This document shows positions 8,485 to 62,975 of a stretch of DNA of 64,000 nucleotides, in pieces. This DNA comes from Nannocystis bainbridge (GTDB lineage Bacteria; Myxococcota_A; Polyangia; Nannocystales; Nannocystaceae). Each line of letters begins with the position of its first letter. Within the stretch, counting starts at the first letter, position 1. Under the pieces are notes generated by a model, which did not search any database, had not been told where the DNA came from, and saw nothing but the letters and a program-made list of their open reading frames with translations. The stretch is taken from positions 320,001 through 384,000 of the forward strand of contig NZ_JAQNDL010000003.1 in the NCBI RefSeq assembly GCF_028368995.1. Direction: 5' to 3'. The translations under genes were made by a program, and so were the position numbers.

Positions 8485-8564
8485 GGACATGTCCCACGGG
8501 ACATGTCTGAAAAACCACGTACGAAAGGGCACGTCCCGCAGGACATGCCCTTTCGTTCATGCGT
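8485..8564. repeat. Array of 14-bp-period GGACATGTCC-like units
   Basis: Units at 8485, 8499, (8513), 8527, 8541 and (8555), all in 14-bp phase; internal A-tract. Confidence 0.85.
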
Positions 8565-8585
8565 ACGAATGGACCGGGTCAGGGC

Positions 8586-9269
8586 TCAGGGCGCGGCGCC
8601 CTCGTCGATCCACTGCTCGACCAGCGCGATCTTGTCGGCGGCGAGCGGCGGGCCGCCCTTGGGCATCTGCGCCGGGTTGCCGTTGAACGGGCCGTCGCCG
8701 CTGGTGCCTTTGAGCTTGGCCAGGAAGTACGACGCGGCCGCGTCGCCGGGCGCGATCCGCTTGAAGCCGGCGGCCTGGGTCGAGTCGACGTCGACGATCG
8801 CCGTATAGGCGGAGGCGGCGTCGGAGAACGTCAGGCCGCCGCTGCCCTGGGTGTGACAGCCGCAGTTGCCGGCGATCGCGGCCGGGAACACGTCGGTCTC
8901 CCAGCTGAGGCCATCGCCGGTGGTGGTCGTCGTGGTCGTCTCCGGCTCCGTCGAGGTGCCGGGCTCGGTGGTGGTGGTCCCGGGCTCGGTGGTGGTGGTC
9001 CCGGGCTCCTCGGTGGTGGTGCCGGGCACGGTCGTCGAGTCCGTGTCCGTGGCGGTGGTGGTGGTCGTCGTCGTCGGCTCACCCGTGGTCGGCTCGTCGG
9101 TGGTCGACTCGGTCGCCGTGGACGTGCCGTCGGTCGTCGAGGCCGTATCGTCGGTCGTGGTCGTGCCGGGGGTGACGTTCGCGTCGGTGGCATTGCCGTC
9201 GTCACCACAAGCGACGAGCGGCAAGGTCAGCAAACTGAAAGTGAAAATCAATTGAAGCGAGTTCTTCAT
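8586..9269 (-). CDS. Lipoprotein with a Thr-rich linker and a C-terminal cytochrome c-like domain
   Basis: Lipobox LVAC; TTTTEPG repeats; NCGCH motif, later MPKGGPPL...WIDEGA. Confidence 0.7.
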   Translation of the reverse strand: MKNSLQLIFTFSLLTLPLVACGDDGNATDANVTPGTTTTDDTASTTDGTSTATESTTDEPTTGEPTTTTTTTATDTDSTTVPGTTTEEPGTTTTEPGTTTTEPGTSTEPETTTTTTTGDGLSWETDVFPAAIAGNCGCHTQGSGGLTFSDAASAYTAIVDVDSTQAAGFKRIAPGDAAASYFLAKLKGTSGDGPFNGNPAQMPKGGPPLAADKIALVEQWIDEGAAP

Positions 9270-9387
9270 CGCGGCGGGACACTATCACGAGTCTCCGCAG
9301 CCAGAAGCGCCGACCGCCGCGCTCGGGGTCGTCCCGAGCGCGGCGGTAGGCCACTTCATTTGCGACGTCTGAGGTCGCACGCACCCA

Positions 9388-9978
9388 TCAATCGTCGAGC
9401 GCGCCGGCGGTGATCCACGCCTCGATCTTGTCGAGGTCCGCGTCGCTCAGCGCGGCCGCGGGCGGCGGCGGCATGGCGGTACCGTTGCCGCCCACCTCGA
9501 CGTGCGTGTTCTTGATCTTGTGCCACAGGTAGCTGTCGTCGGGCTCCCCCGCCGCGACCAGCTGCATCGAGGCGAGCTCGATCGACTGCTGGCCGACGAG
9601 CTCGCCGTACGAGTCGCCGGGGGTGATCACGAACCAACCGGAGGCCGAGCCGCCGGCCACGTGACAGCCCGTGGTGCAGTTGGCGTCCCAGATCGGTTGG
9701 ATGTCGGTCTCGTAGCTGATCGCGACCGGGTTGGTGGTCGCCGTGTCGGTGTCTTCCGTGGTGCTCGTGCCGTCAGTGCCGTCGGTACCATCGGTGCCAT
9801 CGGTGGTGGTCGTCGGCTGGTTGGTGTTGTTGGTGGTCGCGTTGGTGCCGTCGGTGGTGGTGTCGTCGGTGTCCGAATCACCACCCCCGTTGTCGCCGCA
9901 CGCGGCAGCGGCGAAAATCATCACGGCAAACGAGGCCTGGCGGGCGCTCGAAATCCAGGGCATGGAAACACTGCTCAT
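9388..9978 (-). CDS. Lipoprotein paralogous to 8586-9269, with a cytochrome c-like domain
   Basis: AAAC lipobox; T/D/G-rich linker; YETDIQPIWDANCTTGCH...SYLWHKI...MPP...WITAGA. Confidence 0.7.
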   Translation of the reverse strand: MSSVSMPWISSARQASFAVMIFAAAACGDNGGGDSDTDDTTTDGTNATTNNTNQPTTTTDGTDGTDGTDGTSTTEDTDTATTNPVAISYETDIQPIWDANCTTGCHVAGGSASGWFVITPGDSYGELVGQQSIELASMQLVAAGEPDDSYLWHKIKNTHVEVGGNGTAMPPPPAAALSDADLDKIEAWITAGALDD

Positions 9979-10145
9979 AGCGCAACAATCGATACCATTT
10001 CATCACTGGCGTGATCAAGCGTCCAATCGCGGATGGGGCGAGAAAGCCCCAGGGCGCTCCCCGAATCATCTTGCCTTCAAGACAGGCTCTTCGTGACAGG
10101 TGGCTGCGGAGAGCCCGCGAGTGGCCCGTGCTAACCTCGCAGTCC

Positions 10146-11099
10146 GTGAGCCTCCTGCGCGCATTGCCGGCGATCGGGCTCGCGCTCGCGCTCACGGGCT
10201 GCGGGGCGCCGCTCGCATACTCGCGCTTCGTCGCCGAGACGCCGTACAGCACGGCGCCGCTGCCCGCACGCGCCCACGTGTTCCTGATCGCGGGCGGCTC
10301 CGACGTCGCCAACTTCGCTGCCGAGGTCGCTGCACAGCGCGAGCTGCTGCGCACCCGCGGCGTGCAGGCCGACGAGATCGCGTGCTACTGGGCCCAGCCG
10401 ACGCGGGAGGCGTTCCGCCGCGACCGTGCGCAGTACCGTCGCCTCGCGGCCGCGCTCGTCGACTGTTACCCGGCCGCCACGGCGATCGTGCGCGAGCACC
10501 TGGCCCGCGCGGCCGCGAGCGAGCCGCCGTTCCTCTACGTCTACGTCAGCACCCACGGGCTGAGCTCGCTGCTGCCCCCGGATGTCCCGAAGGACCTGCT
10601 CGAAGCGCCAGATGCGGCGATGCTCGACCAGTACGCGCTGCAGCTGGCGGCCGGGCCGGGCCGCGGGTTCCACCCGGCGTTCCTGATGGCGGCCCGCCGC
10701 GCCGGCGCGCCGACCGACGACCTGGTGTTCTCGCCGGGCATGCTGGCCCGCGCGCTGCAGGCGTTGCCCGCTGCGACGCCGAAGGTGGTGGTGCTGCAGG
10801 CCTGCCACGCCGGCGGCTTCGCCCCCGCGCTCGCGCAGGTGCCGGGCCTGGTCGGCCTGGCCGCGGCCCGCCACGACCGCACCAGCTTCGGCTGCGACCC
10901 CGGCCCCGACATGACGATCTTCGGCGCGATCTACATCCGCCTGCTGGAGCGCCGCCTCGGCGAGCCCGCAGCCCTGCCCTCGCTCGACTGGCACGCGCTC
11001 TACAAGCAATTGCAGGCCGAGGTCACCCGCGCCGAGGCCGCCCAGGGCGCGACGCCGTCGCTGCCGGTGCTGCTCGAGAGCGCGGCGCCGGAGCCGTAG
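10146..11099 (+). CDS. Caspase-fold (C13-like) cysteine peptidase lipoprotein
   Basis: LTGC lipobox; YVYVSTHG (His) and VVVLQACHAGGF (Cys) dyad; AARHDRTSFGC. Start codon uncertain. Confidence 0.72.
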   Translation: MSLLRALPAIGLALALTGCGAPLAYSRFVAETPYSTAPLPARAHVFLIAGGSDVANFAAEVAAQRELLRTRGVQADEIACYWAQPTREAFRRDRAQYRRLAAALVDCYPAATAIVREHLARAAASEPPFLYVYVSTHGLSSLLPPDVPKDLLEAPDAAMLDQYALQLAAGPGRGFHPAFLMAARRAGAPTDDLVFSPGMLARALQALPAATPKVVVLQACHAGGFAPALAQVPGLVGLAAARHDRTSFGCDPGPDMTIFGAIYIRLLERRLGEPAALPSLDWHALYKQLQAEVTRAEAAQGATPSLPVLLESAAPEP

Positions 11100-11108: not shown

Positions 11109-11457
11109 GGACAGGTCCTCGAGGACATGTCCTTCGGGACATCTTCCTTAAAAAAACGGCGCTCGTCATGACAATGCCCGAAGGACATGTGCTTTCGGCC
11201 AGCCATGCGATCCGCCCGCGCGGCCCGCGGTCGCAGCATGGCCCGGAGGACATGCCCGATCGGTCAGCCTCGCGTGCCCCCGACGCTCGCCGCGCTCACG
11301 ACCCCAGCCGATGCGCCGCGAGCCGGCTGGGCGCCCGCGAATCGAGCGCCGCCGCGCGAGCCGGACGGACCTGTCCCGAAGGACATCCTCGCTCGCGCCG
11401 GTCAGCCACGCCGCTGCTATCGGACTGACCTGTCCCGAAGGACACCCTCGCTCGCGG
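11109..11457. repeat. 14-bp-period motif array plus a duplicated GACCTGTCCCGAAGGACA cassette between convergent genes
   Basis: Units at 11109, 11123 and 11137, then an A-tract, then 11183; paired units at 11367/11381 and 11426/11440. Confidence 0.85.
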
Positions 11458-11458
11458 C

Positions 11459-14200
11459 TCAGCCCTGGCCGGCGATCCACGCCGAGATCGCGGCGGCGAG
11501 GGCCGTCTCGCCGCCCGCGGACGCCTCGCCGAGGGCCTGGCGGGCCAGCGCCACCGTCTGCGCCCGGCTCTCCGGGCCGGTCTCGCCGGCGGCGGCGTCG
11601 GCGGCTGCGCGCGCCTTGGCGAGGGCGAAGCGGGCCAGCGCGACCTGGGCCGGCGCGCCGGCGCGGGTCGCCAGGCCGAGCGCGCGGGTGCACGCGCCCT
11701 GGGCCGCGGCGTGCTCGCCGAGGGCCGAGTCGACGGCGCACAGCCACGTCAGCGGCTCGACCAGGCGCGGATGGTCGGGGCCGAGGCTGTACTCCCAGGC
11801 CGCCAGCGCGCGCCGCAGATCGCCGGCCGCGTCGGCCCACCGCTGCTGGGCGGCCGCCGCCAGCCCGCGGCCGACCAGCGCCGGCGCCATGTCCGGGTGG
11901 TCCTGGCCGTAGATCTTGGCGTAGATGGCGAGCGCGTCGTCGTAGCGCTCGCGGGCCGCCGCCGCGTCGCTGCGGGCGCGCGCGAGGTCGCCGGCGACCA
12001 CGTGGACGCGGGCCCGGCCCGGGTGCTCCGGCGGCAGGCGGGCCGTCGCCAGCTCGTGGGCGCGGGCGACGTGGCTGGCGGCCTCGCGGTCGCGACCGCC
12101 GCGCTGACAGGCCGCCCCCAGGTCGAGCAAGATCGGCAGCAGCCGCGGATGATCGACGCCGAGCAGCTCCTCGCCGCGGCGCAGCGCCGCCGCCAGCTCG
12201 ACCCGCGCCGCCTCGGCGTCGCCCTCCTGCAGCAGCGCCCGGCCGTAGCGACCGCGCGCGCTGGCCTCGCGGCGGCCGTCGTCGCCGAGCCGCTGCAGCG
12301 CGGCCGACAGGCGCGGCCACAGGCGACGCGCCTCGCCGCGGCGGCCGAGGTCCTCGCACTCGACGCCGAGCTGCAGGGTCAGGGCGTCGGCCGCGACCTC
12401 GTCGTGGCGGCTCGCCTCCGCCGCCCACAGCGCGTCGGCCAGCCCGCGCGACGCCGCCTCGGCCCGCCCCAGCGCCCGCTCGATCGCCGCCCGCCCGTAC
12501 AGCGCCTCCGCCCGGGCCGGCAGCCACGTCTCCTCGTCGGCCGCCAGCGCGCGCGCGATGTCCCACGCCCGCGGCGCGTCGCCCAGCGCCAGCACCGCCC
12601 CCGCGTGGTCGAGCTCCGCCCGCAGCCGCTCGACCAGCGCGCGCGGCCCGTCCTCCTCCGGCTCCGGCACCGCCGCCGCCAGCCGCCGCGGATCGTCGCA
12701 GTCGCGCGGGGCCGGCAGGCCGTCGAGCGCCGTGCCGGCCCGATCGAGCGCCGGGCCCGAGGCCTCGGACAGCGCCCGCGCCAGCCCGGCGAAGGCGCTG
12801 CGCCGGCGCTCGAGGCAGGCCCGTCGCCGCGGCCCCGCCGCGTCCGCGGCCGCCGGATCTGCCTGCGCGTTGCGACATGTCTCCTGGTACATGTCCCGAA
12901 GTTCTTGCGCGTGGCGATCGATGGCCGCCAGGATCGGACCGGCGAACACCGCCCCGCCGGGTCGCTCGGCCAGGGCGCGGCCGAGCCCGGCCCTGCGCGC
13001 GTCGTCCCAGCCGAGGTCGGGCGCCTCGCACATGCCCGCCGGGACAGGTGACTCCGGGCGGGCCGCGACCACCTCGTGCACGGCGAACGCGGCCCCGGCG
13101 AACGCGACCGCCAGGCCGGCGCCGAGCCAGATCCGGCGGCTCAGCCGGTGCCCCCGCGGCCGCTCGCCGAGGTAGTCGAGCAGCTCGTCCATGCCCTTGA
13201 AGCGGTCGGCGGGGCGGACGCTGAGCCCGCGCAGGACGATGCGGTGCAGCCACGCCGGCACGTCCGTGTCCTTCGGCACCTCTTGCACGCGGCCGGCCAG
13301 CACCGCCTCGCGGACCACCGGCACGCGGTCGCCGACGAACGGGCGCTGGCCGTAGAGGCCCTCGTACAGCGCGACGCAGAAGCTGAACTGATCGGTGCGC
13401 GCGTCGGTGGCCTGGCCCTGATACTGCTCGGGGGCCATGTACGCCGGCGTGCCCGTCATGCCGCCCGTGCGGGTGATCCGCATGTCGAGCAGGCTCTTCT
13501 CGGCCATGCCCTTGATCGCCTCGGTATAGGTGTCGGGGCGGGCCAGCGGGCCGATGCCGCGGCCGGCGCGGGCGAGCCCGAAGTCGCCGACGCGCACGCG
13601 ACCCTCGGCGTCGATCATCACGTTGTCGGGCTTGAAGTCGCGGTGGATGACGCCGGCCTTGTGCGCCGCCGCCAGCCCGCGGCCGGCCTCCATGAACACC
13701 AGCAGCACTTCCTTCCACCCGCGTCGCCGCGGCCCGTGCGGGCCCTCGGCCGAGCGCAACCACTTCGTCAGCGTCACGCCCTTGACGAACTCCATGGCGA
13801 GGAAGATCTGGTCCTCGACCGAGCCGACGTCGAAGATCGCGATCACGTTCGGGTGCGACAGCTGGGCCATCGCCTGCGCCTCGCGCAGCAGCCGGTGGCG
13901 CGCCTTGTCGCGCTTGGTGCGGCTGATCGCGGCGGTCCGCAGCACCTTGAGCGCGACCTTGCGATCGAGGTCGCGGTCATAGGCGACATAGACGACGCCC
14001 ATGCCGCCGGAGCCGAGCCGCTTCAGCACGTTGAAGCGGCCGATCTGGCTCGGCACCGGCTCGAGCTCGGCCGCGCAGTCGTTGGCCGGCTCGCCGTCGA
14101 CCGGCGGCGTCAGCGGCGTGCCCATCTCGGGCGACGGGCTCACGTGCGACAGCACCGGCGTCAGCGGTGTGTCCAGTGTCCGATCGGCGGGAGAAGACAC
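11459..14200 (-). CDS. Ser/Thr kinase with a TM helix and C-terminal TPR repeats
   Basis: LGSGGMGVVY, HRDFKPDN, DFG, GTPAYMAPE; TM segment; kinesin-light-chain-like TPR motifs (GxDHP). Start uncertain. Confidence 0.9.
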   Translation of the reverse strand: MSSPADRTLDTPLTPVLSHVSPSPEMGTPLTPPVDGEPANDCAAELEPVPSQIGRFNVLKRLGSGGMGVVYVAYDRDLDRKVALKVLRTAAISRTKRDKARHRLLREAQAMAQLSHPNVIAIFDVGSVEDQIFLAMEFVKGVTLTKWLRSAEGPHGPRRRGWKEVLLVFMEAGRGLAAAHKAGVIHRDFKPDNVMIDAEGRVRVGDFGLARAGRGIGPLARPDTYTEAIKGMAEKSLLDMRITRTGGMTGTPAYMAPEQYQGQATDARTDQFSFCVALYEGLYGQRPFVGDRVPVVREAVLAGRVQEVPKDTDVPAWLHRIVLRGLSVRPADRFKGMDELLDYLGERPRGHRLSRRIWLGAGLAVAFAGAAFAVHEVVAARPESPVPAGMCEAPDLGWDDARRAGLGRALAERPGGAVFAGPILAAIDRHAQELRDMYQETCRNAQADPAAADAAGPRRRACLERRRSAFAGLARALSEASGPALDRAGTALDGLPAPRDCDDPRRLAAAVPEPEEDGPRALVERLRAELDHAGAVLALGDAPRAWDIARALAADEETWLPARAEALYGRAAIERALGRAEAASRGLADALWAAEASRHDEVAADALTLQLGVECEDLGRRGEARRLWPRLSAALQRLGDDGRREASARGRYGRALLQEGDAEAARVELAAALRRGEELLGVDHPRLLPILLDLGAACQRGGRDREAASHVARAHELATARLPPEHPGRARVHVVAGDLARARSDAAAARERYDDALAIYAKIYGQDHPDMAPALVGRGLAAAAQQRWADAAGDLRRALAAWEYSLGPDHPRLVEPLTWLCAVDSALGEHAAAQGACTRALGLATRAGAPAQVALARFALAKARAAADAAAGETGPESRAQTVALARQALGEASAGGETALAAAISAWIAGQG

Positions 14201-19037: not shown

Positions 19038-19616
19038 CACCGATCCCCCCACCGCAGACGCTACGGGCCGGGCGCACGCCGCGTCAACGCTCAATCATAA
19101 GACCATGGGAAATTCCATGCATCGGTCGATGCAATGACGTGTAGGCGCCGCCGTCACGTCGCCGCATCAGCACGAGGATGACGCGGCCCGCCGGCGACAC
19201 CGGCGAGCGGCCCATGGTGCCGCGCCGCCCCAACCCGCGGACGGTGACTGCAATCGGCCTTGCACGGCCGCGCTCCCTCTACACAATGCACATTCGGCGA
19301 ATCACGCGTCGTGCTTCGCCCGCGCGCGCACCTCTTTCGCCGACACGAAATCGCGGCGAGCCTCGCGGCGAAGCGCCGCCCTCGCGGCGCGCCGCTCGTC
19401 GCGGCCGCGCACCGGTTCCCGGCGCCGAATCAAGATGTCTCTTCGGACATGTCCCTTCGTCACCCACGGCTCGCCGCCCGGCCGCTCGCGCGGCTGCCCG
19501 AAGGGCCGAGCTCGGTGCCGGCCCGAGCCGCGGGCGCGCGGCCTGGCGGGCTCTCGGCGGCGAGCGGCTGCAGGGTCGTGGACGCGGGCGGCGGCGCGCT
19601 CTAGACTGCCGCGGCT

Positions 19617-20174
19617 ATGGCACGAAGCAAGACCAGCAATTGGGTGAGCCTCGCCCTCGCGGCGACCGTGGGCATCGGCGCGTACGAGCTCGGGCTGTTC
19701 GACTGCGACAGCACCGACGGGGTCGAGCACCTCGCCAATCAGGTGTGGATCGAGCGGCTCCCGCAGAACGACCGCGACCAGATCCACCACCTCGTGCTGC
19801 TCGAGCAAGGCCGCGACCGCTTCGGCGGGTTCGGCAAGAGCTCGCAGTGGCGGCACTTCCTCGAGATCTTCGCGTGGCACCGCGAGCAGGGCCGCCTGAC
19901 CCTCCACCTGCCGCAAGACCGCGTGCGCCTCGACCTCGAGGCCCGTGTGTGGGACTGCGAGGACGAGGCCCCGGCCCCGTTCGAGCTGTGCCTCGAGCTC
20001 AAGGGCCAGAAGCACACGTCGCGCTACTACAGCCGCTACGACTGGGTCATCGAGGGCGACAAGGCGCCCCACATCGAGGGCCTGCCCGAGCTGGTCCCCC
20101 ACGCGGCCCCGACGCTGCCCGAAGGCTTCGAGTTCACGCCCGACGCCGACGCCCAGGCGCTGCTGGCCCACTGA
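19617..20174 (+). CDS. Hypothetical membrane-anchored or exported protein
   Basis: ATG start, N-terminal hydrophobic helix, protein-like composition. Confidence 0.7.
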   Translation: MARSKTSNWVSLALAATVGIGAYELGLFDCDSTDGVEHLANQVWIERLPQNDRDQIHHLVLLEQGRDRFGGFGKSSQWRHFLEIFAWHREQGRLTLHLPQDRVRLDLEARVWDCEDEAPAPFELCLELKGQKHTSRYYSRYDWVIEGDKAPHIEGLPELVPHAAPTLPEGFEFTPDADAQALLAH

Positions 20175-20452: not shown

Positions 20453-20518
20453 GAACATGTCTTGAAGGACCGAAACTTTCGGACATTTCCATATAGACAT
20501 GCCCTTTGGGACATATGC
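20453..20518. repeat. Array of 14-bp-period units
   Basis: Units at 20453, 20467, 20481, 20495 and 20509; an AT-richer island in a long intergenic region. Confidence 0.8.
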
Positions 20519-21523: not shown

Positions 21524-21919
21524 ATGGGACCCCAGGTGACCCGGAGCGAGACCGAGGGGATCTGCGTCGAGGTGAAGACGCGCTACGTCGGCGGGCGTGC
21601 CTTGCCCGAGGGCGCACGCTTCGTCTTCGCTTACACAATCCGGATCTCCAACACCGGCGATGCGCCCGCCCAGCTGTGCCGCCGTCACTGGTTCATCACC
21701 GACGCGCACGGCGACGTGCGCGAGGTCGAGGGCGAGGGCGTGGTCGGCTCGCAGCCGCTGCTGCACCCCGGCGAGTCGTTCGAGTACACCAGCGGCTGCG
21801 TGCTCGAGACGCCCCACGGCGCCATGCACGGCAGCTACACCATGTTCCGCCCCAGCGGCGCCTGCTTCGAGGCGCTGGTCGACGCGTTCGTCCTGGCCGA
21901 CCCGCAGGCCATTGTCTGA
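21524..21919 (+). CDS. apaG: ApaG protein
   Basis: FVFAYTIRISN, RRHWFITD, VEGEGVVGSQP, FEYTSGC, G.MHGSY. Confidence 0.93.
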   Translation: MGPQVTRSETEGICVEVKTRYVGGRALPEGARFVFAYTIRISNTGDAPAQLCRRHWFITDAHGDVREVEGEGVVGSQPLLHPGESFEYTSGCVLETPHGAMHGSYTMFRPSGACFEALVDAFVLADPQAIV

Positions 21920-21959
21920 AGGGACATGTCCTCGGGGCCATGGCCCGAGAGACAGCAGC
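21908..21959. repeat. 14-bp-period array overlapping the apaG stop codon
   Basis: Units at 21908, 21922, 21936 and 21950. Confidence 0.75.
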
Positions 21960-22030: not shown

Positions 22031-22825
22031 GTGCGCCTCCATGCCCTCGCCGTCGCCGCGTTGCGGGGCCACGTCGAGCGGTTCCTCCGCGCCCACGGCG
22101 TCGACCCCGGGCAGCCGCGCGAGGACGCCGAGCTCGACACCTTCACCCTCGTGAGCATGCTGCTGGCCGCGCTGGGCCACGTCCGCGCCGCCTACCCGTG
22201 GCCCGCAGGCGCGCCCGGGCCCGACCCGCCGGGCCTCCTGCCGGCCGTCGCCGCCGCCCTGCCCGCCTACCACGCGCCGCTCACCGCCGACGCCTGCGTC
22301 GAGGCCCTGCGGCGGGTCCTCGGCTTCGCCGTCGACGCCGGCCCGTGCCAGCGACGCGCCGCCCCGCCGGCCGTCTATCCCTACATGTCCTTCGAGACAG
22401 ATGACTCCCTGCGCGCCGCCGACCTCGCCGACCGCGTGCTCGGCGTCGTCACCGACGACGGCTGGCTCGCCGAGCCCGCGCGCCGTGACATCGTCCTCGC
22501 CGCCGCCCTGCCCGCCAACGCCGAGCCGACCCGCTTCGAAGCGCTGGACCGCGAGCGCGCCAGCGCCCTGGCCGCCCACCTCCTCCCGGGGACCGACCGC
22601 CACGCCGCCGCCGCCGCGTTCGTCCGGCTGTTCGGCGACGCCACCCTCTGCTTCGGCCTGCACGACCAGGGCAGCGAACGACCCGACCCCTTCGCCCACG
22701 GCCACGCGTGGAGCCGCTACGACGCCCACGGCTACGGCAGCTGGGGCCGCACCCTCGTGCTCGCCGTCACCGACGGCCTCCGCGTCGCCTACCTCGACGC
22801 CCTGTGGGACGTCACCAGCGAGTGA
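22031..22825 (+). CDS. Hypothetical protein
   Basis: 264-aa ORF with strong third-position GC bias; no recognised motif. Confidence 0.6.
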   Translation: MRLHALAVAALRGHVERFLRAHGVDPGQPREDAELDTFTLVSMLLAALGHVRAAYPWPAGAPGPDPPGLLPAVAAALPAYHAPLTADACVEALRRVLGFAVDAGPCQRRAAPPAVYPYMSFETDDSLRAADLADRVLGVVTDDGWLAEPARRDIVLAAALPANAEPTRFEALDRERASALAAHLLPGTDRHAAAAAFVRLFGDATLCFGLHDQGSERPDPFAHGHAWSRYDAHGYGSWGRTLVLAVTDGLRVAYLDALWDVTSE

Positions 22826-22876: not shown

Positions 22877-22956
22877 GGGCATGTCTCTGAGAACATGCCC
22901 CGGAGCACATGCCCGAAAGGACATGTCCTCGAGAGCATGCCCGCGGGGACAGCCTC
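22877..22956. repeat. Array of six 14-bp-period units between convergent genes
   Basis: Units at 22877, 22891, 22905, 22919, 22933 and 22947. Confidence 0.9.
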
Positions 22957-23731
22957 AGCCGAGCCCGGCCAGGAACGCCGACACCACCGCCGCCGTCTCG
23001 TCGGGCCGCTCGACCTGCACGTAGTGCCCCGCCCCGCGGAGCACGGCCAGGCGCGCGCCTGCGATCCGGTCGACGATCGTCTGGCGCAGGAACGGCGGTG
23101 GCATGAACGGATCGTCGGTCGCCACCACCAGCGTGCGGGCCGTGATCGCCCCCAGGCGATCGGCGAAGCTCAGCCCCGACCACGACTCGAAGCCCTCGGC
23201 GATGCACTTCGAAGGGATCGTCTCTCCGGCCGCCAGCAGCCGCTCGCGCGCGCTGTCCGACAGGTTCGTGCACGCCATCCCGAGGATCGTCGCCTTCGCC
23301 TCGCGGTTGTCGGCCCCGCGGAACAGCCCCGCCGCGTCGGGCGGGAACGGGATGCCCGACGCCGGCACCGGGCACAGCAGCACCTGCCCTTGCACCCGCT
23401 TCGGCTCCGCCGCCGCGATCCACTGCGCGATCGCCCCGCCCATGCTGTGGCCGATCAGCACGAATGACCTGTCCCCGAGGACATCCATCAGCTCGGTGAT
23501 GTCGGCCGCGTAGCGCTCGACCGTGTAGCCCGCCTCGGGCCGGCCGGACTCGCCGGCGCCGCGCAGGTCGGGGATCACGAGCCGGAAGCCCGCCAGGTCG
23601 AGCCGCTCGGCCAGCTCGTCGTAGACCGCGCTGGAGACCATCCAGCCGTGGATCGCCAGGACCGTCCGCGGGCCCTCGCCGAGCACGCGGTAGGCGATCT
23701 GGACCTTGTCGCTCGTCGTCATCGTCGGCAT
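22955..23731 (-). CDS. Alpha/beta hydrolase
   Basis: IHGW, DLRGAGES, GHSMGG nucleophile elbow, GAGHY. Confidence 0.9.
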   Translation of the reverse strand: MPTMTTSDKVQIAYRVLGEGPRTVLAIHGWMVSSAVYDELAERLDLAGFRLVIPDLRGAGESGRPEAGYTVERYAADITELMDVLGDRSFVLIGHSMGGAIAQWIAAAEPKRVQGQVLLCPVPASGIPFPPDAAGLFRGADNREAKATILGMACTNLSDSARERLLAAGETIPSKCIAEGFESWSGLSFADRLGAITARTLVVATDDPFMPPPFLRQTIVDRIAGARLAVLRGAGHYVQVERPDETAAVVSAFLAGLG

Positions 23732-23848: not shown

Positions 23849-26800
23849 CTACAGTTCGCCGATCTGGCGCAGGAAGTCGGTCGCCTCGGTGCAGTTCGGG
23901 TCCTCCATCAGCGCCTTGCGGCCCCACAGCACCGCCTTCTGGCGGTCGCCGCGCCGCTCGGCGATGTAGCCCTGGCGCAGGTAGGCCACCGCCCGGCTCA
24001 TCGGCGCCGCCTCCATCAGCGCGATGCTGCGGAGCACGCGGATGGCGAGGTCGTAGTCCTCCATCTGCTCGGCCAGCGTCGCCAGGGCGACCGCCACGTC
24101 GCCGTTGTTGCGGTCGGTGTTGTGGGCCTCCTTGAGCCAGTGCAGCTCCTGCTCGAAGTTCTCCTGGGCCCCGGCGACCATCGCCTTGCGGTACTGCATG
24201 GCGCACAGCTCGGGCGAGCGGCGGCCCCTCATCGCCTCGATCGCCGCGTCGAGGATGGTGTTGGCCTCGTCGAACTGCTCGGCCGCGGCGTAGGCCTCGA
24301 CCAGCAGCAAGTTGACCGCCTGATCGGCCGGGCGCAGCTTGAGCGCCCGCTTGAGCGCCTCGACGGCCGCCTCCGCGTCCTCGTCGAGCAGCAGCTCGCC
24401 GGCCTGGCGCAGCGTGACGAAGCGGGTCCCCTCGTCGGTGATCACGTCGGCCTCGGCGATCAGCAGCCGCGCGAGCGCCGGGTAGTTCTCGGTCTCCTCG
24501 AGGATCTGCTTCAGCCGCGCGCGCACGGCCTCGTTCTTCGGCTGGGCCTTGTGGGCCACCTCGAGCCCGGCCTGGGCGTCGTGCGGCCGGCCGACCTGCT
24601 CGCAGGCGTCGACCAACTGCATCGCCGCCTTGATCTGCTCCGCGCCGGTCTCGGCGGCCACCAGCCGGGTCGCCGTCTCGATCACGCTCTCCCACCGGCC
24701 CGCCGCGACGTCCATCACCGTCAGCTGGCGCAGCGCCTCGGTGTCGCCGGGCGCGTGCTCGAGCCACCCCGACAGCGCGTGGCGGGCCTGGTCGTCGGCG
24801 CCCTCCTTGCGCAGGACGTCGGCCAGCCGCAGCGTCGCGCTGCGCTCGCCCTCGCTGTCGTTGCGCTTGGCGGCCGCGCTGCGCCAGCGCTCGAGCCCGT
24901 CGATCAGATCGGGGATGAGCTCGGCGCCGACCAGGCCGTACGCCTCCTCGAGGTCGGCGGAGGCCCGGGCCTCGTCGCCGATGATCATGCGCAGCTCGGC
25001 GCGGCGGCGCAGGAACTCGACCTGCACGTCCTGCTCGAGCGGGCGCCAGTCGATCGCCTTCGTCAGCTCCTCGACCGCGCTGACGTGCTCGCCGGTGTCG
25101 CACAGGCGGGCGATGAACTCGCGCAGCAGGTCGTTGTCGTTGGGGTCGAGGGCGGCCGCGGTGCGCAGCACCTCGGCCGACTTGCCGGCGTCCATCAGCT
25201 GATCGGCGTAGATCGTCGAGGCCTCGCGCAGCAGCCCGACCGCCTGCGTCGGGTCGACCGAGCGGTCGGCCGACCCGACCAGCAGCTCGGCCAGGCGCTC
25301 GAACTCGCCGCGCTCGCGGTACCACGCCTCGAGCCGCTCGCGCAGCGCCTCGCTGTCGGGCGCGGCCTTGTAGCCGGCCTCGAGCACGCGGGTGGTCGCC
25401 TCGCGCTCGCCGAGCTTGTCGTACTGACCGGCCAGGTCGAGCGCCAGGCGGACCGCCGCCTCGCCGGTCTCGATCGCCAGCAGCCGCTCGCCGATCTCGG
25501 CCCGCTCGCGCGGGTCCGCCTCGCCCTCGGTCAGGCTCAGCATCGCCTCGATCAGCGCCCGGCTCTGCGGCGCGAAGTCGAGGGCGGTGCGGTAGACCGC
25601 CAGCGCCTCGTCGGGCTGGGTCTTGCGCAGCAGGTCGCCGAGCCGCAGCGAGGCCGCGATCACGCCCTCGCTGTCGCCCGCGCCCTGGGCCGTCAAGATC
25701 TGCTGGTTGAGCAGGTCGACCAACTCGGCGTCGAAGCCGGTCTTCTCGAACACCTCGGCCAGCAGCGCCTCGGCCTGCTTGTGGCCCGGCTCCTCCATCA
25801 GCACGTCCTTCAGCAGGCGCACCACTTCTTGCTCGTGGCCGCCGGCCTGCAGCAGCGCGTCGACCAGGTCGAGGCGCAGCTGGTTGCGCTCGCCGACCTC
25901 GGCGAGGCTCGGCAGCGTCGACTCGACCAGCTGCTGCAGCCGCGCCGGGTCACCGGCCTTGCGGTACACCGCCATCAGCGGGCCCCACACGGCCTTGTCG
26001 CTCGCGTCCTGCAGCAGCAGGTCCTCGTAGACCTCGGCGGCCAGCGGCAGCTGCTCGGTCTGCGCCGCCGCGAGCCCGGCGATCTCGCGCTGGAGCTCGA
26101 AGGTCCGCGCCAGCTGCCAGTTGGCGGCCGACTCGCGCAGGAAATCGACGGCGCCGCGCAGGTCACCCGCGGCCTTGCGGCGCTCGGCCAGGGTCAAGTA
26201 GGTCTCGGCGATCGCCTGGCCGCTGCCCTCGCGCTCGCCCACCAGCTCGATGCGTCGCACCAGCAGCTTCTCCGAGCGCTCGCTCTCGCCGAGCTCGAGC
26301 GCCAGGTTCGACGCCTCGTCGGCGACCTTGGGATCGACGCCCTCGACGTTGACCTTCTGCTCGAGGTACGCGAGCAGCCCCTGGCGGTCGCCGAGCTTGC
26401 GCACGATCTGCTCGTAGAGCTCGCCGAGCTCCTTGTGATCCGGCGCCGCCGCGAGCGCGCGGCGCAGCACCGGCTCGGCCAGGTCGAGGCGCGGCTCGGT
26501 CTGCAGCGCGCGCCGCATCGCCGCGACGCCGGCGTCACGCGACTCGGGCGCGGCCAGCTGCAGCTCGGCCAGGCCGAACGCCGCGCGGGCGCGGACCTCC
26601 GGCGTGGTCGCGTCGTCGGGGGCGCCGGCGATCCGCTCGAGCAGCTCGACCTGACGCGCCGAATCACCGCGAGCCGCGGCGATCCGCGACAGCCCCAGCC
26701 ACGCGTCGACGACCCGCTCACCGCTGGCCTCGACGCGCCCGTACAGCTCGGTCGCGCGGGCCTGGTCGGCGAACTCGCGCTCGACGATGTCGGCGGCGCG

Positions 26801-36354: not shown

Positions 36355-36765
36355 ACGACCTGTCCCGACGGACACATTGCCCCGCGACGATTACCTCTCG
36401 GAGGGACGTGCACCGCGCGGCGCACCGATATGCTGTGAAAGCCACCCGCCGCGAATCTATCTATCCCGAAGGACACATCGAAACGCCGCTTACCGACCTG
36501 CCCTGAAGGACACATCGAAACGCAACGTACCGACCTGCCCTGAAGACCTGTCGTCCCCCCTCGACATGACCTGAAGAACACCTCGCGGCCGCGAGACATG
36601 TCCCCAAGGACACCCCCGCGCCGCCACGAGCCTCGCGCCGCCGACCTGTCCCCGGGGCCAGCTCAGCTCCGCCGCCGCGCGAGACATGTCCCCAAGGACA
36701 CCCCCGCGCGCCGCCACGAGCCTCGCCGCCGACCTGTCCCCGGGGCCAGCTCAGCTCCGCCGCCG
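36355..36765. repeat. Composite repeat region: about 40-bp tandem repeats and an about 88-bp direct duplication, both carrying the 14-bp motif
   Basis: GAAGGACACATCGAAACGC...TACCGACCTGCCCTGAAG occurs twice (36468-36545); CGCGAGACATGTCCCCAAGGACAC...CTCAGCTCCGCCGCCG occurs twice (36590-36765). Confidence 0.85.
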
Positions 36766-39186: not shown

Positions 39187-39217
39187 CCCGGCCACCATAG
39201 CAGCGCGAGATCGGCGC

Positions 39218-42808: not shown

Positions 42809-42918
42809 CTGCCTGTCCTCGCGGACATGTCCTCGGGAGCCTGTCCTCGGGAGCCTGTCCTCGCGGACATCTCGCTCCGCCCAAAAACACGAAGGGACAT
42901 GTCCTCACGGACATGTCC
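42809..42918. repeat. 14-bp-period array (5+2 units) between convergent genes
   Basis: Units at 42809, 42823, 42837, 42851 and 42865, then an A-tract, then 42895 and 42909. Confidence 0.9.
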
Positions 42919-42954: not shown

Positions 42955-43914
42955 TCACGCCGGGATGGCGCAGGCGCCGATGTTCTCCTGGCCCGGAGGG
43001 GCCATGCCCTCGGTGTACCAGGGCACGCACTCCTGGCCGTCGGCCATGCCGGGGCAGGTGTTGGGCTCCTGGACGTTGCAGTACGAGCTGCAGCAGCCGT
43101 CGGCGTTGTCGCAGCCGGGCACGGACTCGGGCGTGGCGCAGTACAGGCCGTAGTCGCACACGTTGATGTAGGCGCACGGGTCGCCGTAGGCGCCCATGTC
43201 GCCGCTGGCGTCGAAGTCGCAGATGAACTGGTCGAGGCCGTCGAAGAAGCAGATCTGGCCCGCGGGGCAGCTCTGGATCAGCGGGTCGCAGGTCTCGAGG
43301 CAGAGGATCAGCACCCCGTCGTTCGACACGTCGCAGGTCTGGCCCATGTCGCACGACGGCGTGTCGGGCGTGCCCTTGCACATGTCGATGCACGAGCCGT
43401 TGTTGTTCTCGTCGAAGTACCAGCACAGCAGGCCGATGTCGCAGGTGTCGACGCCGCTGACCGCGCTGCCCTCGACCGTGCACGGATCGCCTTCCTTGCC
43501 CGGGTTGGCGTCGATCGGCGAGCACTTGGTGGCGTTCCACGAGCTGGCGCCGTTGTCGGCCCACGGCATGCACTTCTGGCCCGACGGGCAATCTTGCGTC
43601 CACACGTCGCACTCCTTCACGCCGCCGCCGCCGTCGGGCGGGGTGATGAAGGAGCCGTCGGTGGTGTCGGGGCCGACGCTGGTGGCGCTGTCTTCGGTGG
43701 TCGTCGGGTTCGGCGCCGTCGTCGTGACCGGGTTGGTCGAAGTCGTCCCGTCGCTCGTCCCGCCGCCGGTCGACGTGTCGCCCTCGGTCGCGTCGTTGGT
43801 CGGATTGGTGCTCGGGTTGGTCGCGTTGGTCCCGCTGCCCTTCCCATCGTCTTCTTTACAGGCTCCCAGCGCCAGCGCGGCGCCGATGACAGTGAATCGA
43901 ACGTAATTGAGCAT
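42955..43914 (-). CDS. Cys-rich lipoprotein with a Thr-rich linker
   Basis: LGAC lipobox; CDVWTQDCP.GQKC and CDPLIQSCP.GQIC repeats. Confidence 0.8.
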   Translation of the reverse strand: MLNYVRFTVIGAALALGACKEDDGKGSGTNATNPSTNPTNDATEGDTSTGGGTSDGTTSTNPVTTTAPNPTTTEDSATSVGPDTTDGSFITPPDGGGGVKECDVWTQDCPSGQKCMPWADNGASSWNATKCSPIDANPGKEGDPCTVEGSAVSGVDTCDIGLLCWYFDENNNGSCIDMCKGTPDTPSCDMGQTCDVSNDGVLILCLETCDPLIQSCPAGQICFFDGLDQFICDFDASGDMGAYGDPCAYINVCDYGLYCATPESVPGCDNADGCCSSYCNVQEPNTCPGMADGQECVPWYTEGMAPPGQENIGACAIPA

Positions 43915-46659: not shown

Positions 46660-50743
<4,084 letters not shown>

Positions 50744-50781
50744 CCTTTCAGGCATGTCCTCTCCGACAGGTCCGTAACACC

Positions 50782-52182
<1,401 letters not shown>

Positions 52183-52294: not shown

Positions 52295-53878
52295 ATGCGG
52301 CGCCAGGCCCCCATCAAGCGCTCGAGCACCGGTCAGCGGACCATCGCCGGCTCGAAGTCCGCCGATGTCGCCAACCTCGACGATCGCCCGCTGTCGATCC
52401 ACATCACCCGCGACGGCAAGCACCTCGTCGTCCCGCTGCCGTACGAGCTGTGGATCCTCGGCGTCAACAGCTTCGAGGTCGTGCGCACGATCGAGTGCGC
52501 CAACCCGGAGCCGTCGGTGAGCGAGGGCGCCAAGGACGGCCAGCTGTGGATCGGCGGCCATCACCTCTACTTCGGCAGCGTGTTCTCGACCGCGCTGACC
52601 AAGGTCGGCAGCAAGCTCGGCGACTTCGTCGATCGCGTGGCCCTGGTCCGCGGCGGCGTGCTGTGCGGCGTCGGGGCGACCGGCGAGATCCTGTTCGACG
52701 TCGACAAGGAGACCCCGCTGCACCGGCGCAAGGTGTCGGAGCGGGTCGTCACCGGCCTCGTCAACCTCGACGGGCGCGCGCTGTGGGCCGACGGCTCGAG
52801 CACCGCGTGGCTCATCGATCCCGATCGGCCCTCCGGCTACACCCAGCTCAAGCTGCGCGCCACCAGCCCGACCGAGGTCGACGCCGAGGGCATCGCCGCG
52901 CTCGGCGCCACCACCACCGGCCGCGCGATCCTCTGCGCCCGCGACGGCGCGGTCGCCTGGACCGGCAAGCACCTGCGCGTCGACGGCGAGCGCTTCCCTC
53001 GCCTCGCCGCGCGCCAGGCCGCCCCGCTGGCCTGCGGCGGCGACGAGCGCCACGTCTACGTGCTGCGGCCCAAGGGTCTGCTGCAGCGGTTCCTCATCGA
53101 GCAGCCCAGACCCCAACCTGGCGAAGAGGACAGCTTCGTCCCGCTGCCCGAGGCCGAGGAGACGCGGCTGCAGTGGCCGGCGACCTGCATGCTGGTCCTC
53201 GGGACAGGTCACGGCGCGGCCCGGATCGTGCTCGGCGGCCCGCAGGCCGAGGGCATGCTCGGCCGGCTGTGGCGCGTCGATCCCGACGCCCTCACCTGGC
53301 AGAAGGTCGCGCCCGGCAAGCGCGCCCTCGTCGAGCCGCGCCCCGCCGAGCCCGAAGAGGCCAACAAGCGGCCCGACTTCACGCCCACCCGCAGCAAGCT
53401 GACCGGCGCCCCGATCTCCGCGCTCAAGGTCGACGCCGTGCTCGCCGCCGACCTCGCGCAGGTGTTCGTCAGCCACGGCCACGGCGCGCTGCTCGAGCGC
53501 CCGGTCGTGCGCCGTCCGGCCAGCGATGTCCTGCCCGGCGACGCCCTGCTGCTGCCGGCGATGGTCCGCTTCCACGAGGGCACGGCGCGCCCGGCCCTGG
53601 TGCTGTGGCCCGGCACGCCCGACGCGGGCCGCGAGCCGCCGCCGCTGCGCTGGCTGGCGTGGGCCGACAACCCGCGCGGGTGGATCGAGCTGACGACGCC
53701 GGAGATCCGCAAGCAGGGCTGGTCGCGCGCCGACGTGTTCCCGCTGCAGGTCGCCGTCGCCGCCGCGCCCGCGGTCGCCGGCAACCGCGAGCCGATCCCC
53801 GACAAGTGGGTCGACCCCGAGCTGTTCGCCGCCCTCGCCCGCGAGTGCAAGAAGCTGCTCAAGGTGCTCTGGGAGTAG
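52295..53878 (+). CDS. Hypothetical protein with a probable N-terminal beta-propeller
   Basis: 527-aa ORF, beta-strand-rich WD-like segments, no signal peptide. Confidence 0.65.
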   Translation: MRRQAPIKRSSTGQRTIAGSKSADVANLDDRPLSIHITRDGKHLVVPLPYELWILGVNSFEVVRTIECANPEPSVSEGAKDGQLWIGGHHLYFGSVFSTALTKVGSKLGDFVDRVALVRGGVLCGVGATGEILFDVDKETPLHRRKVSERVVTGLVNLDGRALWADGSSTAWLIDPDRPSGYTQLKLRATSPTEVDAEGIAALGATTTGRAILCARDGAVAWTGKHLRVDGERFPRLAARQAAPLACGGDERHVYVLRPKGLLQRFLIEQPRPQPGEEDSFVPLPEAEETRLQWPATCMLVLGTGHGAARIVLGGPQAEGMLGRLWRVDPDALTWQKVAPGKRALVEPRPAEPEEANKRPDFTPTRSKLTGAPISALKVDAVLAADLAQVFVSHGHGALLERPVVRRPASDVLPGDALLLPAMVRFHEGTARPALVLWPGTPDAGREPPPLRWLAWADNPRGWIELTTPEIRKQGWSRADVFPLQVAVAAAPAVAGNREPIPDKWVDPELFAALARECKKLLKVLWE

Positions 53879-53882: not shown

Positions 53883-53948
53883 CTACATGTCCCCCGGGGC
53901 ATGTCCTGAAGCGCATGCGCCATAGGACATGTCCTCAGGAGCATGTCC
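53883..53948. repeat. Array of five 14-bp-period units between convergent genes
   Basis: Units at 53883, 53897, 53911, 53925 and 53939, each with a CATG core. Confidence 0.9.
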
Positions 53949-54042
53949 TGAAGTGACCATCGGTGCGACGCCCCTCGGCGTCGCCCTCGCGCCGCGGAGG
54001 CCGGACTCCGGCTGACGCAGGCCTCGCCCGCGAGCGGGCACG

Positions 54043-54073
54043 AAAAAGGGCGGCGCGGTCGCCCGCGTCGCCC
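54043..54073 (-). terminator. Probable intrinsic terminator of the LeuA-family gene
   Basis: Minus strand GGGCGACGCGG-GCGA-CCGCGCCGCCC followed by TTTTT, about 20 nt after the stop. Confidence 0.6.
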
Positions 54074-60892: not shown

Positions 60893-61852
<960 letters not shown>

Positions 61853-61861
61853 GCCGCCCGG

Positions 61862-61941
61862 GGACCTGTCGCTTCAGCCAGGTCCCATCGCACATGGCCA
61901 TCAGGCCATGAATCTACGGACAGGTTCTTCGGGACCTGTCC
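61862..61941. repeat. Array of six 14-bp-period units between convergent genes
   Basis: Units at 61862, 61876, 61890, 61904, 61918 and 61932. Confidence 0.85.
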
Positions 61942-61947
61942 GTTCGT

Positions 61948-62208
61948 TCATCCGCGCCAGCGGACCAGCCGCGCCTGCCCGCTGTGCTTCAGCACCCGCG
62001 CCAGCTTGAGCAGCTCGCCGGCCACCCACGCGTCCTCGGGCGCGGGCGCGAGGATCGCCTGGCCGGCCGCGTCCCACGTCAGCTCGGCGGCGACGGTCGT
62101 CCCGTCGGCCACGAACACGCGCGCTTGATAGCGCAGCGGCTCGCTGGCTTCGCGTTCGCACACGAAGCGCGCGCCGGCGGTGGGGTGCAGCTCCTGACTC
62201 GAGACCAC
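61948..62208 (-). CDS. Small hypothetical protein (86 aa)
   Basis: GTG start 7 nt after AGGAG; only the 3' part of ORF 61948..62991 looks protein-like. Confidence 0.6.
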   Translation of the reverse strand: MVSSQELHPTAGARFVCEREASEPLRYQARVFVADGTTVAAELTWDAAGQAILAPAPEDAWVAGELLKLARVLKHSGQARLVRWRG

Positions 62209-62219
62209 GGCCACGCTCC

Positions 62220-62975
62220 TCAGAACCGCAGGCCCAGGCCCGTGGGCGCCTCGCCGCGCGTGGGCCCGATGTTGCCGAGCTCGGACGGCCCGTTCGCCTT
62301 GCTCTGGCTCACCAGCACCCCGGCCGTCACGCCGCCGGCGACCGCGAGCACGCCGACGACGATCACGCCCCAGAACCAGCCCTTCTTGTAGACCGGCTGC
62401 TTGCTCGGCGGCGGCGCGTCGCCCCCGCGCGGCGGCGCGGTCTCGACGGCCTCGGACGGCCCCTCCGGCGTCGCCGCGGCCGGCGTGCGCGCGGCGATCT
62501 CCGCCAGCTGCTCGTCGATCTTGGCGATCTGCGCCTCGGCGTCGTCGCGCTGCTCCTGATCCATCTTCGGATCGTCGGCCAGCGCCTTGAGGTAGTTCTG
62601 GAACAGCCGCCGAGCCTTGCGCAGGTTGCCGGCGTCGCTCGAGAGCCCGTACCACTGGGTGTAGGCCAGGCCGAGGTTGTAGAGCAGGTAGGGGTGGTTC
62701 GACAGCGCGTAGCTGCGCTCGAAGTGGACGATCGCCTGCTCGTAGTTGCCGAGCGCGTAGGCCTGCGTGCCGGCCTTGTACTCGACCGCAGGATCGTCCG
62801 ACAGCGGCACCTTCGACGTCGCCTTGTCGCCCTCGCCTGCTGTCCCGGAGGACCTGTCCCCAGAGACAGCCGGCTCGTCGGCCACGCGCGCGCGCGCGCC
62901 GGCCGGAGTGAACACGATCGCCCCCGCCAGCGCGACGGCGAGCGAGGGACCCGAGGACCGCGCAAGCAGGTTCAC
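62220..62975 (-). CDS. Exported TPR protein with a C-terminal TM segment
   Basis: Signal peptide; YKAGTQAYALGNYEQAIVHFERSY...LLYNLG TPR; PVYKKGWFWG-TM, typical of myxobacterial TPR/PEGA proteins. Confidence 0.78.
   Translation of the reverse strand: MNLLARSSGPSLAVALAGAIVFTPAGARARVADEPAVSGDRSSGTAGEGDKATSKVPLSDDPAVEYKAGTQAYALGNYEQAIVHFERSYALSNHPYLLYNLGLAYTQWYGLSSDAGNLRKARRLFQNYLKALADDPKMDQEQRDDAEAQIAKIDEQLAEIAARTPAAATPEGPSEAVETAPPRGGDAPPPSKQPVYKKGWFWGVIVVGVLAVAGGVTAGVLVSQSKANGPSELGNIGPTRGEAPTGLGLRF

Follow-up and report, generated by a model that had tools for sequence, protein, structure and literature searches.

What is the short palindrome that recurs at a fixed period in a 64-kb stretch of the Nannocystis bainbridge genome, and what maintains it? 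The stretch (positions 320001–384000 of contig C2, here called the window) belongs to an 11.05-Mb genome in five contigs with 71–72% GC. A first-pass annotation had described a degenerate 10-bp palindrome at 14-bp spacing and proposed it as a chromosome-wide system of binding sites. Allowing up to one mismatch, the window contains 26 copies of the 10-mer GGACATGTCC, where 100 dinucleotide shuffles gave a mean of 1.6 and a maximum of 6. Genome-wide it has 956 exact copies, ranking fourth by count among palindromic 10-mers, and 4116 copies at up to one mismatch. Pairs of these copies lie 14 bp apart 602 times, 13 bp apart once and 15 bp apart never, which shows the 14-bp period to be genuine and rigid. 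The series continues at 28 bp (259), 42 bp (280), 56 bp (127), 70 bp (35) and 84 bp (24), while distances off the multiples of 14 bp occur about 0–15 times each. The pervasive periodic palindrome thus stands, as does its autocorrelation at 14, 28 and 42 bp. The apparent excess at 42 bp (lag 3) may be caused in part by the better outer units of four-unit arrays and by the array definition used.

The 10-mer, which had been taken as the basic unit, is a product of a different element. TGTCC-N4-GGACA has 1987 exact copies genome-wide, and replacing its spacer by N0–N3 or N5–N12 gives 0–16. GGACA-N0-TGTCC accounts for the 956 exact 10-mers, with other spacings of GGACA and TGTCC found 4–19 times. 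At up to one mismatch there are 6245 dyads (164 for a reversed control pattern), more than the 4116 10-mers, indicating that arrays tend to terminate in half-sites. The split dyad TGTCC-N4-GGACA is the fundamental module; where copies abut head to tail, they generate the palindrome GGACATGTCC at a strict 14-bp spacing.

Alignment of the units gave the profile G.75 G.77 A.65 C.96 A.91 T.92 G.97 T.61 C.83 C.79, followed by four free positions. Units are individually conserved toward a palindromic consensus, most strongly at the four central bases, and RCATGY occupies unit positions 3–8 in about 90% of units. The spacer positions, free as they are, hold about 50% A+T against 28.5% in the genome. 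Both dyad axes that had been described are real, and the symmetry extends to the spacers, whose columns are mirror-symmetric relative to transcription (TTCG 44, CGAA 47). The commonest outer flanks of the dyad are CA..TG, the chainable type, then CC..GG or GC..GC. Variants at the centre are frequent (GGAC[AG]GTCC 153, GGAC[CT]GTCC 192), and the double variant [CG] is rare (9).

We chained in-phase units into arrays, seeding at up to one mismatch and extending at up to three, which yielded 3245 arrays with 7344 units. There are 1093 singles, 1240 doubles, and 366, 241, 171, 98, 26, 6 and 4 arrays of three to nine units. Every one of the five contigs is populated, at 6–130 units per 100 kb, a distribution that would speak against a placement like that of matS, Noc or SlmA sites, the analogues suggested by the annotation, or of parS, which are confined to or excluded from a replichore region (ori and ter are not located in this five-contig assembly). 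The unit-poor 100-kb bins, at 0.5 and 1.1–1.3 Mb of contig C1 and 0.4 Mb of C5, hold 6–13 units compared with a typical 40–120; they may be islands or giant-gene clusters.

Arrays are tied to gene 3′ ends and to stop codons, which went beyond what the annotation had seen. Genes were located with a crude caller based on codon log-odds, which gave 7804 genes and 82.7% coding sequence (few genes Pfam-checked). Unit density is 2.76 per kb in non-coding and 0.23 per kb in coding DNA, a 12-fold difference (7–12-fold across measures), and reaches 8.18 per kb in convergent gaps, against 2.1–2.4 in tandem and 0.66 in divergent gaps. Within tandem gaps, 698 arrays are closer to the upstream stop and 312 to the next start; their distance from the stop has its mode at 0–20 nt and a median of 55 nt, compared with a median of 182 nt to the next start. 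A near-consensus unit lies within 190 nt past the stop in 1962 of 7803 genes (about 25%).

The stop codon itself is built into the array. Offsets from stop to unit are phased, with one series at +6 (94), +20, +34, +48 and +62 and a second at +11 (82) and +25 (81), and offsets of +3 to +5 are depleted (4–8 each). Stop codons occupy registers that cost at most one mismatch: unit positions 6–8 (TGT to TGA), positions 1–3 (GGA to TGA), or the spacer, in which case the final codons of the gene supply the GTCC of the preceding unit. This confinement implies that a unit overlapping a stop must still resemble a unit. At the other end of genes, 59 predicted start ATGs fall within a CATG core and are preceded by in-phase units, as at window position 50782. 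Arrays also follow codon-biased genes more often than others. Median G+C at third codon positions (GC3) is 0.957 with and 0.939 without a following array in tandem gaps, and 0.956 and 0.937 in convergent gaps (p = 1e-39 to 1e-52); across codon-score quintiles the array fraction climbs from 27% to 50% (convergent) and from 7% to 19% (tandem).

Modules are also abundant inside genes, predicted genes containing 2584 of the 6245 (41%). We compared gene interiors (6.56 Mb of sequence lying 150 nt or more from either gene end) with five synonymous-codon shuffles. Exact 10-mers number 245 against 24–35 in the shuffles, 14-bp pairs 399 against 19–27, exact dyads 611 against 17–25 (about 30-fold), and dyads at up to one mismatch 1964 against 328–374. 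The excess over codon-preserving shuffles that the annotation had anticipated is thus present. Arrays of at least four units occur in gene interiors 48 times; in the 40 that we inspected, GC3 is high in the frame of the gene on both sides, and the array translates as 14-residue repeats of the GHVxxDMSxxTGPx kind.

The helicase gene lhr provides an example. Its product (Pfam DEAD at 49–234, Helicase_C at 311–408) carries an in-frame four-unit array in the linker between the two domains. Four CATG cores stand in phase in 6 of 6 Nannocystis species; the residues of the insert vary between nearly identical flanks. The array is absent from all nine orthologues in other genera, of which five have a short loop (about 3–10 residues), two have unrelated insertions and two have a gap, indicating that the element is tolerated in frame in protein loops. 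Because the 14-bp phase is kept while the amino acids change, the constraint acts on nucleic acid rather than on protein, as had been claimed.

Positions of arrays are conserved within the genus. In 40 kb of syntenic sequence from five congeners, units stand at orthologous gene ends in 30 of 37 comparisons for the eight array-bearing gene ends of the window, and in 4 of 80 for the 17 array-free ends; three of those four lie in a convergent gap whose other gene bears an array. In orthologous arrays the CATG cores and the 14-bp phase are preserved; what differs is the spacers, the flanks and the number of units.

Outside the genus, the array form all but disappears. The two-unit pattern (up to two mismatches) was found in 10 of 10 congeneric genomes (7–532 matches), in 1 of 14 other genera of the family (2 matches) and in none of the 16 genomes searched from 13 further families of the class. 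Exact matching against 185,579 species genomes returned 78 loci, of which 75 lie in Nannocystis, Nannocystaceae or Myxococcales and three are singletons elsewhere. The array form is essentially restricted to the genus Nannocystis. Exact dyads number 1550–2090 in near-complete Nannocystis genomes (controls 3–6), 161 (control 1) and 87 (control 10) in two sister genera, and 0–8 in all other genomes searched. All 15 sites examined in the 161-copy genome are single, seven inside open reading frames (ORFs) and four at 3′ ends. That two sister genera are enriched in the same dyad, in the form of single sites, fits a conserved reader that predates the arrays. Periodic arrays of a similar kind built on a different core were looked for in 41–100-kb samples of four other genera of the family; none was seen, at a low sensitivity (a 100-kb control from the N. 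bainbridge genome gave 9 pairs). A 7-bp tandem repeat of the TCGGTTC type in another genus of the family (about 20 copies, G019:C1:1-100000) is unrelated to the dyad.

We propose, at a probability of roughly 45%, that the modules are binding sites for a candidate symmetric, dimeric DNA-binding protein and form a repeat family akin to repetitive extragenic palindromes (REP), bacterial interspersed mosaic elements (BIME) and the highly iterated palindrome HIP1. The protein-site reading is drawn from rigid spacing and symmetry only. A dimer would bind the double-stranded dyad with its half-sites one helical turn apart, and dimers would load side by side and cooperatively on abutting modules, each probably rotated about 120 degrees from the last by the 14-bp period. 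The rigid dyad, the centre-weighted conservation, the A/T-rich free spacers and the mirror symmetry with respect to transcription all fit a dimer on double-stranded DNA, as do the lack of neighbour-specific covariation (below) and the fact that sites are conserved between species and occur in both sister genera. Arrays would then be BIME-like, protein-bound gene-end repeats that may serve as topological (supercoil) or transcriptional read-through barriers at the ends of transcription units; gene-end and convergent placement and the link to codon-biased genes would fit such a role. Selection would hold the genome-wide excess of modules, as has been proposed for HIP1. The annotation's polymerising dimeric protein is thus retained as a proposal; two candidate protein families, RAYT and PadR, were searched for and neither was found.

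A bolder version is doubtful: about 6,000 dyads would be read by a candidate dimeric protein that polymerises on the stop-codon arrays of a quarter of all genes, making them gene-end insulators (transcriptional roadblocks or supercoil barriers between convergent units), with a reader that predates the genus. The 87–161 single sites in the two sister genera would point to such an older reader; in Nannocystis the sites would then have multiplied about ten-fold and taken on their tandem arrangement.

Several results weigh against a protein-binding site. As RNA, the arrays fold strongly (z −1.9 to −6.9), and complementary flanks extend the pairing in 78 of 1240 two-unit arrays, against 27 when shuffled. 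Flank bases are associated across the spacer (A..T 652 and C..G 413, against A..G 319 and C..T 371). The sense strand is slightly asymmetric, with G3 (415) exceeding C8 (333; p = 0.003) and T9 (282) exceeding A2 (223; p = 0.01), both in the direction expected of G–U tolerance in RNA. Direct repeats of the same variant at lags 1–3 are enriched 2.5–5-fold, the strongest association between units; this shows slippage, and the persistence of arrays could be partly mutational. REP-associated tyrosine transposases (RAYT; Y1_Tnp, PF01797) gave no match in this genome or in any of five congeners, one of them a one-contig 13.2-Mb genome, and were detected in control genomes. PadR (PF03551) likewise gave no match in the genome (90.5% complete) and was detected in 14 of 14 control genomes. 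The crude gene calls, on which the placement results depend, count on the same side.

The folding, flank and strand results are those expected if the arrays act in RNA, as 3′-untranslated stem-loops in which neighbouring units pair into a 10-bp stem with a 4-nt loop and, like REPs, shield mRNA 3′ ends against exonucleases or modulate the termination of translation or transcription at the stop. The start of arrays 0–20 nt past stops and their frequency past codon-biased genes would agree with this. So would individual loci: the pair at 8527–8550 forms with its flanks a perfect 16-bp hairpin (z = −6.9 for 8485..8550), a further extended pair lies at 42895–42918, and the array at 53883 sits between a stop codon and a separate hairpin and T-run terminator at about 54038–54064 (minus strand). 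We nevertheless consider an RNA element unlikely. The rate at which a non-consensus base is matched by a compensating one is 15.2% for the next unit, 13.2% at lag 2, 15.8% at lag 3 and 10.0% for a random partner, so compensation is not specific to adjacent units; in two-unit arrays it falls to 192 of 1753 (11%), about the random level. Pairing-specific covariation between adjacent units was thus not convincing. Tetraloops lack strand asymmetry, the loop is fixed at exactly four nucleotides, which hairpin function alone would not need, and conservation peaks in mid-stem in a way that does not reflect pairing. About 2,600 modules lie inside genes. Two folded forms were rejected: a long hairpin with paired spacers, since spacers are not inverted complements (1.0–1.2 of 4 positions match, 1.11 in random pairs), and a hairpin-pair model, since the arrays show neither loop/linker alternation nor a preference for even unit numbers.

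Termination as such is also a poor fit. The arrays lack the sense-strand U-tract that follows the hairpin of an intrinsic terminator: their flanks are symmetric, with TTTT within 16 nt downstream of 24 of 1011 arrays and upstream of 13. A crude terminator finder placed arrays in 20% of tandem gaps with and 16% without a terminator, and in 46% and 39% of convergent gaps; relative to the canonical terminator, the array comes first 42 times and second 41 times, and the two overlap in 73 instances. By this finder, the presence of arrays is independent of canonical terminators. Such terminators follow 7–9% of genes by crude criteria. GC-rich hairpins with a T-run, at 54038–54064 (minus strand) and past genes 40289..40882 and 23849..31621, are conserved in 5 of 5 congeners, which indicates that ordinary intrinsic terminators exist in Nannocystis.

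Could the arrays persist without any function? They would then be a selfish or neutral palindromic minisatellite, spread by replication slippage and templated quasi-palindrome correction and accumulating where it does no harm, at gene ends, in convergent gaps and in protein loops. Slippage requires no transposase. Of 1947 pairs of neighbouring spacers, 81 are identical (4.2%, where 1.3% would be expected). Some units have thus been duplicated freshly, as at 42837–42864 in the window; together with the same-variant neighbours, these duplications show that arrays grow through unit duplication. Spacers within arrays are mostly unrelated, making most arrays old; the annotation's view that the pattern is not a recent tandem duplication therefore holds for the majority and fails for this minority. 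Copy number differs between orthologous arrays, promoter-bearing divergent gaps are depleted, and the Lhr insertion sits in a variable loop, all as expected of a harmless repeat. We judge this explanation quite unlikely, because orthologous loci are retained (30 of 37), with CATG cores preserved, spacers diverged and spacings of 13 or 15 bp absent, and because single dyads inside genes, at about 30 times the synonymous-shuffle expectation, cannot come from a 14-bp insertion. The stop-codon register effect, which implies constraint on the overlapping unit, and the single sites in two sister genera speak against it too.

A drive through DNA uptake or methylation is highly improbable. The motif would act like a DNA uptake sequence or uptake signal sequence (DUS/USS), or its RCATGY core would be the target of an orphan methyltransferase or of repair, as proposed for HIP1. 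A genome-wide excess in coding and non-coding DNA, confinement to one lineage, inverted pairs at gene ends and the near-constant RCATGY core would suit such a drive. DUS and USS are asymmetric 9–12-mers with an uptake bias of the competence machinery, and a rigid, symmetric N4 dyad in phased arrays of up to nine units is not known from them. As far as the available parts of the HIP1 reports go, these features are foreign to HIP1 as well (PMC5861425, PMC4390886).

If a dimeric protein does read the dyads, known families offer one suggestive operator. In the portion of the report consulted, PadR operators follow the pattern ATGT-N8-ACAT (PMC3506622). CATG-type modules contain this pattern, and PadR as their reader was rejected for want of a Pfam match in the genome; the zero means either that the family is truly missing or that the six-frame search lacks sensitivity at 71% G+C. 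Nothing telling emerged as a cognate gene near the 32 divergent-gap arrays of at least three units or at the densest loci.

Neither the literature searched on Nannocystis, on myxobacterial repeats or on the motif nor a gathering-score Rfam scan of the 64-kb window (no matches) yielded a description of this element, in keeping with the annotation's statement that it was undescribed; among the matches listed for GGACATGTCC, all were non-bacterial and most concerned p53 or primers. By location and array form the closest fit is a new REP/BIME-like class, another suggestion of the annotation. BIMEs are bound by proteins (IHF, gyrase, Pol I), and REPs close to stop codons affect translation. Like REPs and BIMEs, the Nannocystis modules are short, lineage-specific palindromes in hundreds to thousands of copies, form tandem arrays in non-coding DNA, favour gene 3′ ends and above all convergent gaps, and persist vertically. 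They differ from REPs, and from REP doublets forming hairpins (REPIN), in having no RAYT (6 of 6 Nannocystis genomes), in a self-symmetric 14-bp module with zero linker, in lacking an inverted-doublet organisation (with extended flank pairing in the 78 two-unit arrays given above), in being not strictly extragenic despite a strong 3′-end and convergent bias, and in building the stop codon into the first unit. The families compared were the REPs, BIMEs and REPINs of Enterobacteria and Pseudomonas and the REPIN–RAYT systems, as far as the accessible text of the reports describes them (PMC3116915, PMC3337134).

HIP1 (GCGATCGC) of cyanobacteria is likewise a short palindrome over-represented in coding and non-coding DNA whose sites are conserved between genomes, according to the sections available (PMC5861425, PMC4390886). 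Its function is described there as open, with selection argued over neutral replenishment and a role in chromosome structure proposed (PMC5861425). The Nannocystis dyad shows the same over-representation in genes (245 against about 30 for 10-mers, 611 against about 20 for dyads) and cross-genome conservation of sites. In contrast to it, HIP1 is an unsplit 8-mer with known cognate methyltransferases, and those sections report neither in-phase tandem arrays nor stop-codon anchoring for it. The element is of the REP/BIME and HIP kind, and unusual in its self-symmetric 14-bp module, exact phasing, stop-codon integration, in-frame copies and lack of a RAYT.

Two further comparisons concern single features. 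Rickettsia palindromic elements (RPE) are palindromic repeats inserted in frame in coding genes and tolerated in loops, to which the Lhr linker insert is a parallel; RPEs are single elements of about 100–150 bp from a different phylum. Dimeric repressors bind cooperative operator arrays (MetJ metboxes, omega heptads, ParR–parC), and Crp/Fnr operators have a 5-N4-5 form. Half-sites one helical turn apart and palindromic units abutting at a fixed period are common to these and to the Nannocystis arrays; operator arrays occur at a few promoter or centromere sites per genome, compared with about 6,000 modules, concentrated at gene 3′ ends, here.

Should a protein read the arrays, they would amount to a natural, genome-wide, sequence-defined marking of about 2,000 gene ends in a bacterium, and would bear on the purpose of REP/BIME-type repeats and HIP-type palindromes and on read-through and supercoiling between convergent genes in genomes of 11–13 Mb and 71% G+C. 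If they are only slippage-driven junk, they show a 14-bp palindrome invading coding loops and overlapping stop codons. Either way, the arrays are a strong genus marker and supply ready-made sites of loop insertion in proteins; they also confound gene callers, since stops and starts are embedded in units and in-frame arrays translate as GHVxxDMSxxTGPx-type loops.

The loci of the window are collected in Table 1. Among the ten intergenic arrays of the annotation, eight have three to five units in one phase (up to three mismatches), the one at 21908 has two units and the one at 36355 is weak (one unit); the intergenic pairs reported at 19431 and 39891 each turn out to be one TGTCC-N4-GGACA dyad. 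The 15 copies reported inside ORFs do all lie in predicted genes; ten are single dyads without a 10-mer at up to one mismatch, and the only array-like sites are 34176 (three units) and 49685 (four units, up to three mismatches).

Table 1. Dyad modules and arrays in the 64-kb window (window coordinates; strand of genes in brackets).
Coordinates	Feature	Setting	Remark
8485..8550	two 2-unit in-phase arrays (8485, 8499, 8527, 8541)	gap by stop of 8586..9233 (-)	
11109..11146	3-unit array	10 nt past stop of 10146..11099 (+)	Tandem Repeats Finder (TRF) period 14
12873..12896	2-unit copy	within predicted gene 11459..14155 (-)	
19431..19454	single dyad and one exact 10-mer	intergenic	
20453..20518	about 4 degenerate units	intergenic, past gene 19644..20174 (+)	
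21922..21945	2-unit array	3 nt past stop of 21536..21919 (+)	annotated position 21908 is in the last codons of the predicted gene
22877..22952	5-unit array and terminal half-site GGACAG	abuts stop 22955-22957 of 22955..23731 (-)	
23470..23483	exact single dyad TGTCC-ccga-GGACA	within gene 22955..23731 (-)	identical in 5/5 congeners
near 10583, 15161, 22381, 27344, 28564, 29447, 35519, 42252	other single modules	within genes	
34176..34213	3-unit array	predicted 5′ part of gene 32160..34406 (-)	start codon uncertain
36594..36705	two unit-plus-half-site copies		carried by 88-bp tandem duplication 36590-36766
42809..42918	convergent gap filled stop to stop	genes 41975..42808 (+) and 42955..43914 (-)	RNA fold z = −5.0
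42823-42874	4-unit array	past gene 41975..42808 (+)	fresh duplication of GAGCCTGTCC-tcgg
42895-42918	perfect 2-unit hairpin	before stop of 42955..43914 (-)	2-unit part conserved in 4/5 congeners
49727..49750	2-unit copy, GGACAGG variants	within gene 49442..50743 (+)	
50750..50795	about 3 degenerate units	39-nt gap between genes 49442..50743 and 50782..52182	
53883..53948	5 units, one phase	5 nt past stop of 52295..53878 (+)	RNA fold z = −3.3
61862..61941	about 4 degenerate units, GGACCTG/GGACAGG variants	convergent gap, 60923..61852 (+) and 61948..62214 (-)	
62836..62873	dyads GCTGTCC-cgga-GGACCTGTCC-ccag-AGACAGC	within gene 62220..62975 (-)	

Some of these loci have further features. The convergent gap of the 11109 array contains extra single or double units at 11183, 11248 and 11367–11390. 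At 22877..22952 (RNA fold z = −3.8), 5 of 5 congeners carry three to five units at the same place. A synteny breakpoint lies exactly at 22825/22955: the gene on the right is syntenic in 5 of 5 congeners, and the gene on the left (22031..22825) is found elsewhere. The start ATG of gene 50782..52182 is inside a CATG core of the 50750..50795 array. The 53883 array recurs in 5 of 5 congeners, with three or four units scored at up to two mismatches and about five in-phase CATG cores by eye.

The densest module loci of the genome encode a TPR protein, trigger factor, a UvrD-like helicase, an S1 protein and a Pro/Gly-rich repeat ORF. At the densest (C2:2064001-2071000, 2054–6511, minus strand; 20 modules in 3 kb), a 1485-residue TPR protein adjoins trigger factor, and the modules presumably sit in its long central region between TPR blocks. 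The second densest (C3:1095001-1101500, about 1100–3200; 19 modules in 3 kb) is a coding-like Pro/Gly-rich repeat of about 2 kb (..MAPGTGPWGQ/H..), built on GGACAGGTCC-N4-GGACAGG modules and largely missed by the gene caller.

The window also holds longer tandem repeats. The 88-bp unit at 36590–36766 has two copies, 95% identical, in the gap that precedes gene 36751..39198 (minus strand). Each copy holds AGACATGTCC-ccaa-GGACA and a CCTGTCC-ccgg-GG half-module, and a 37-bp repeat of 2.7 copies adjoins it at 36447–36545. At 181–387, inside a long predicted gene, a 105-bp unit unrelated to the dyad occurs twice with 83% matches.

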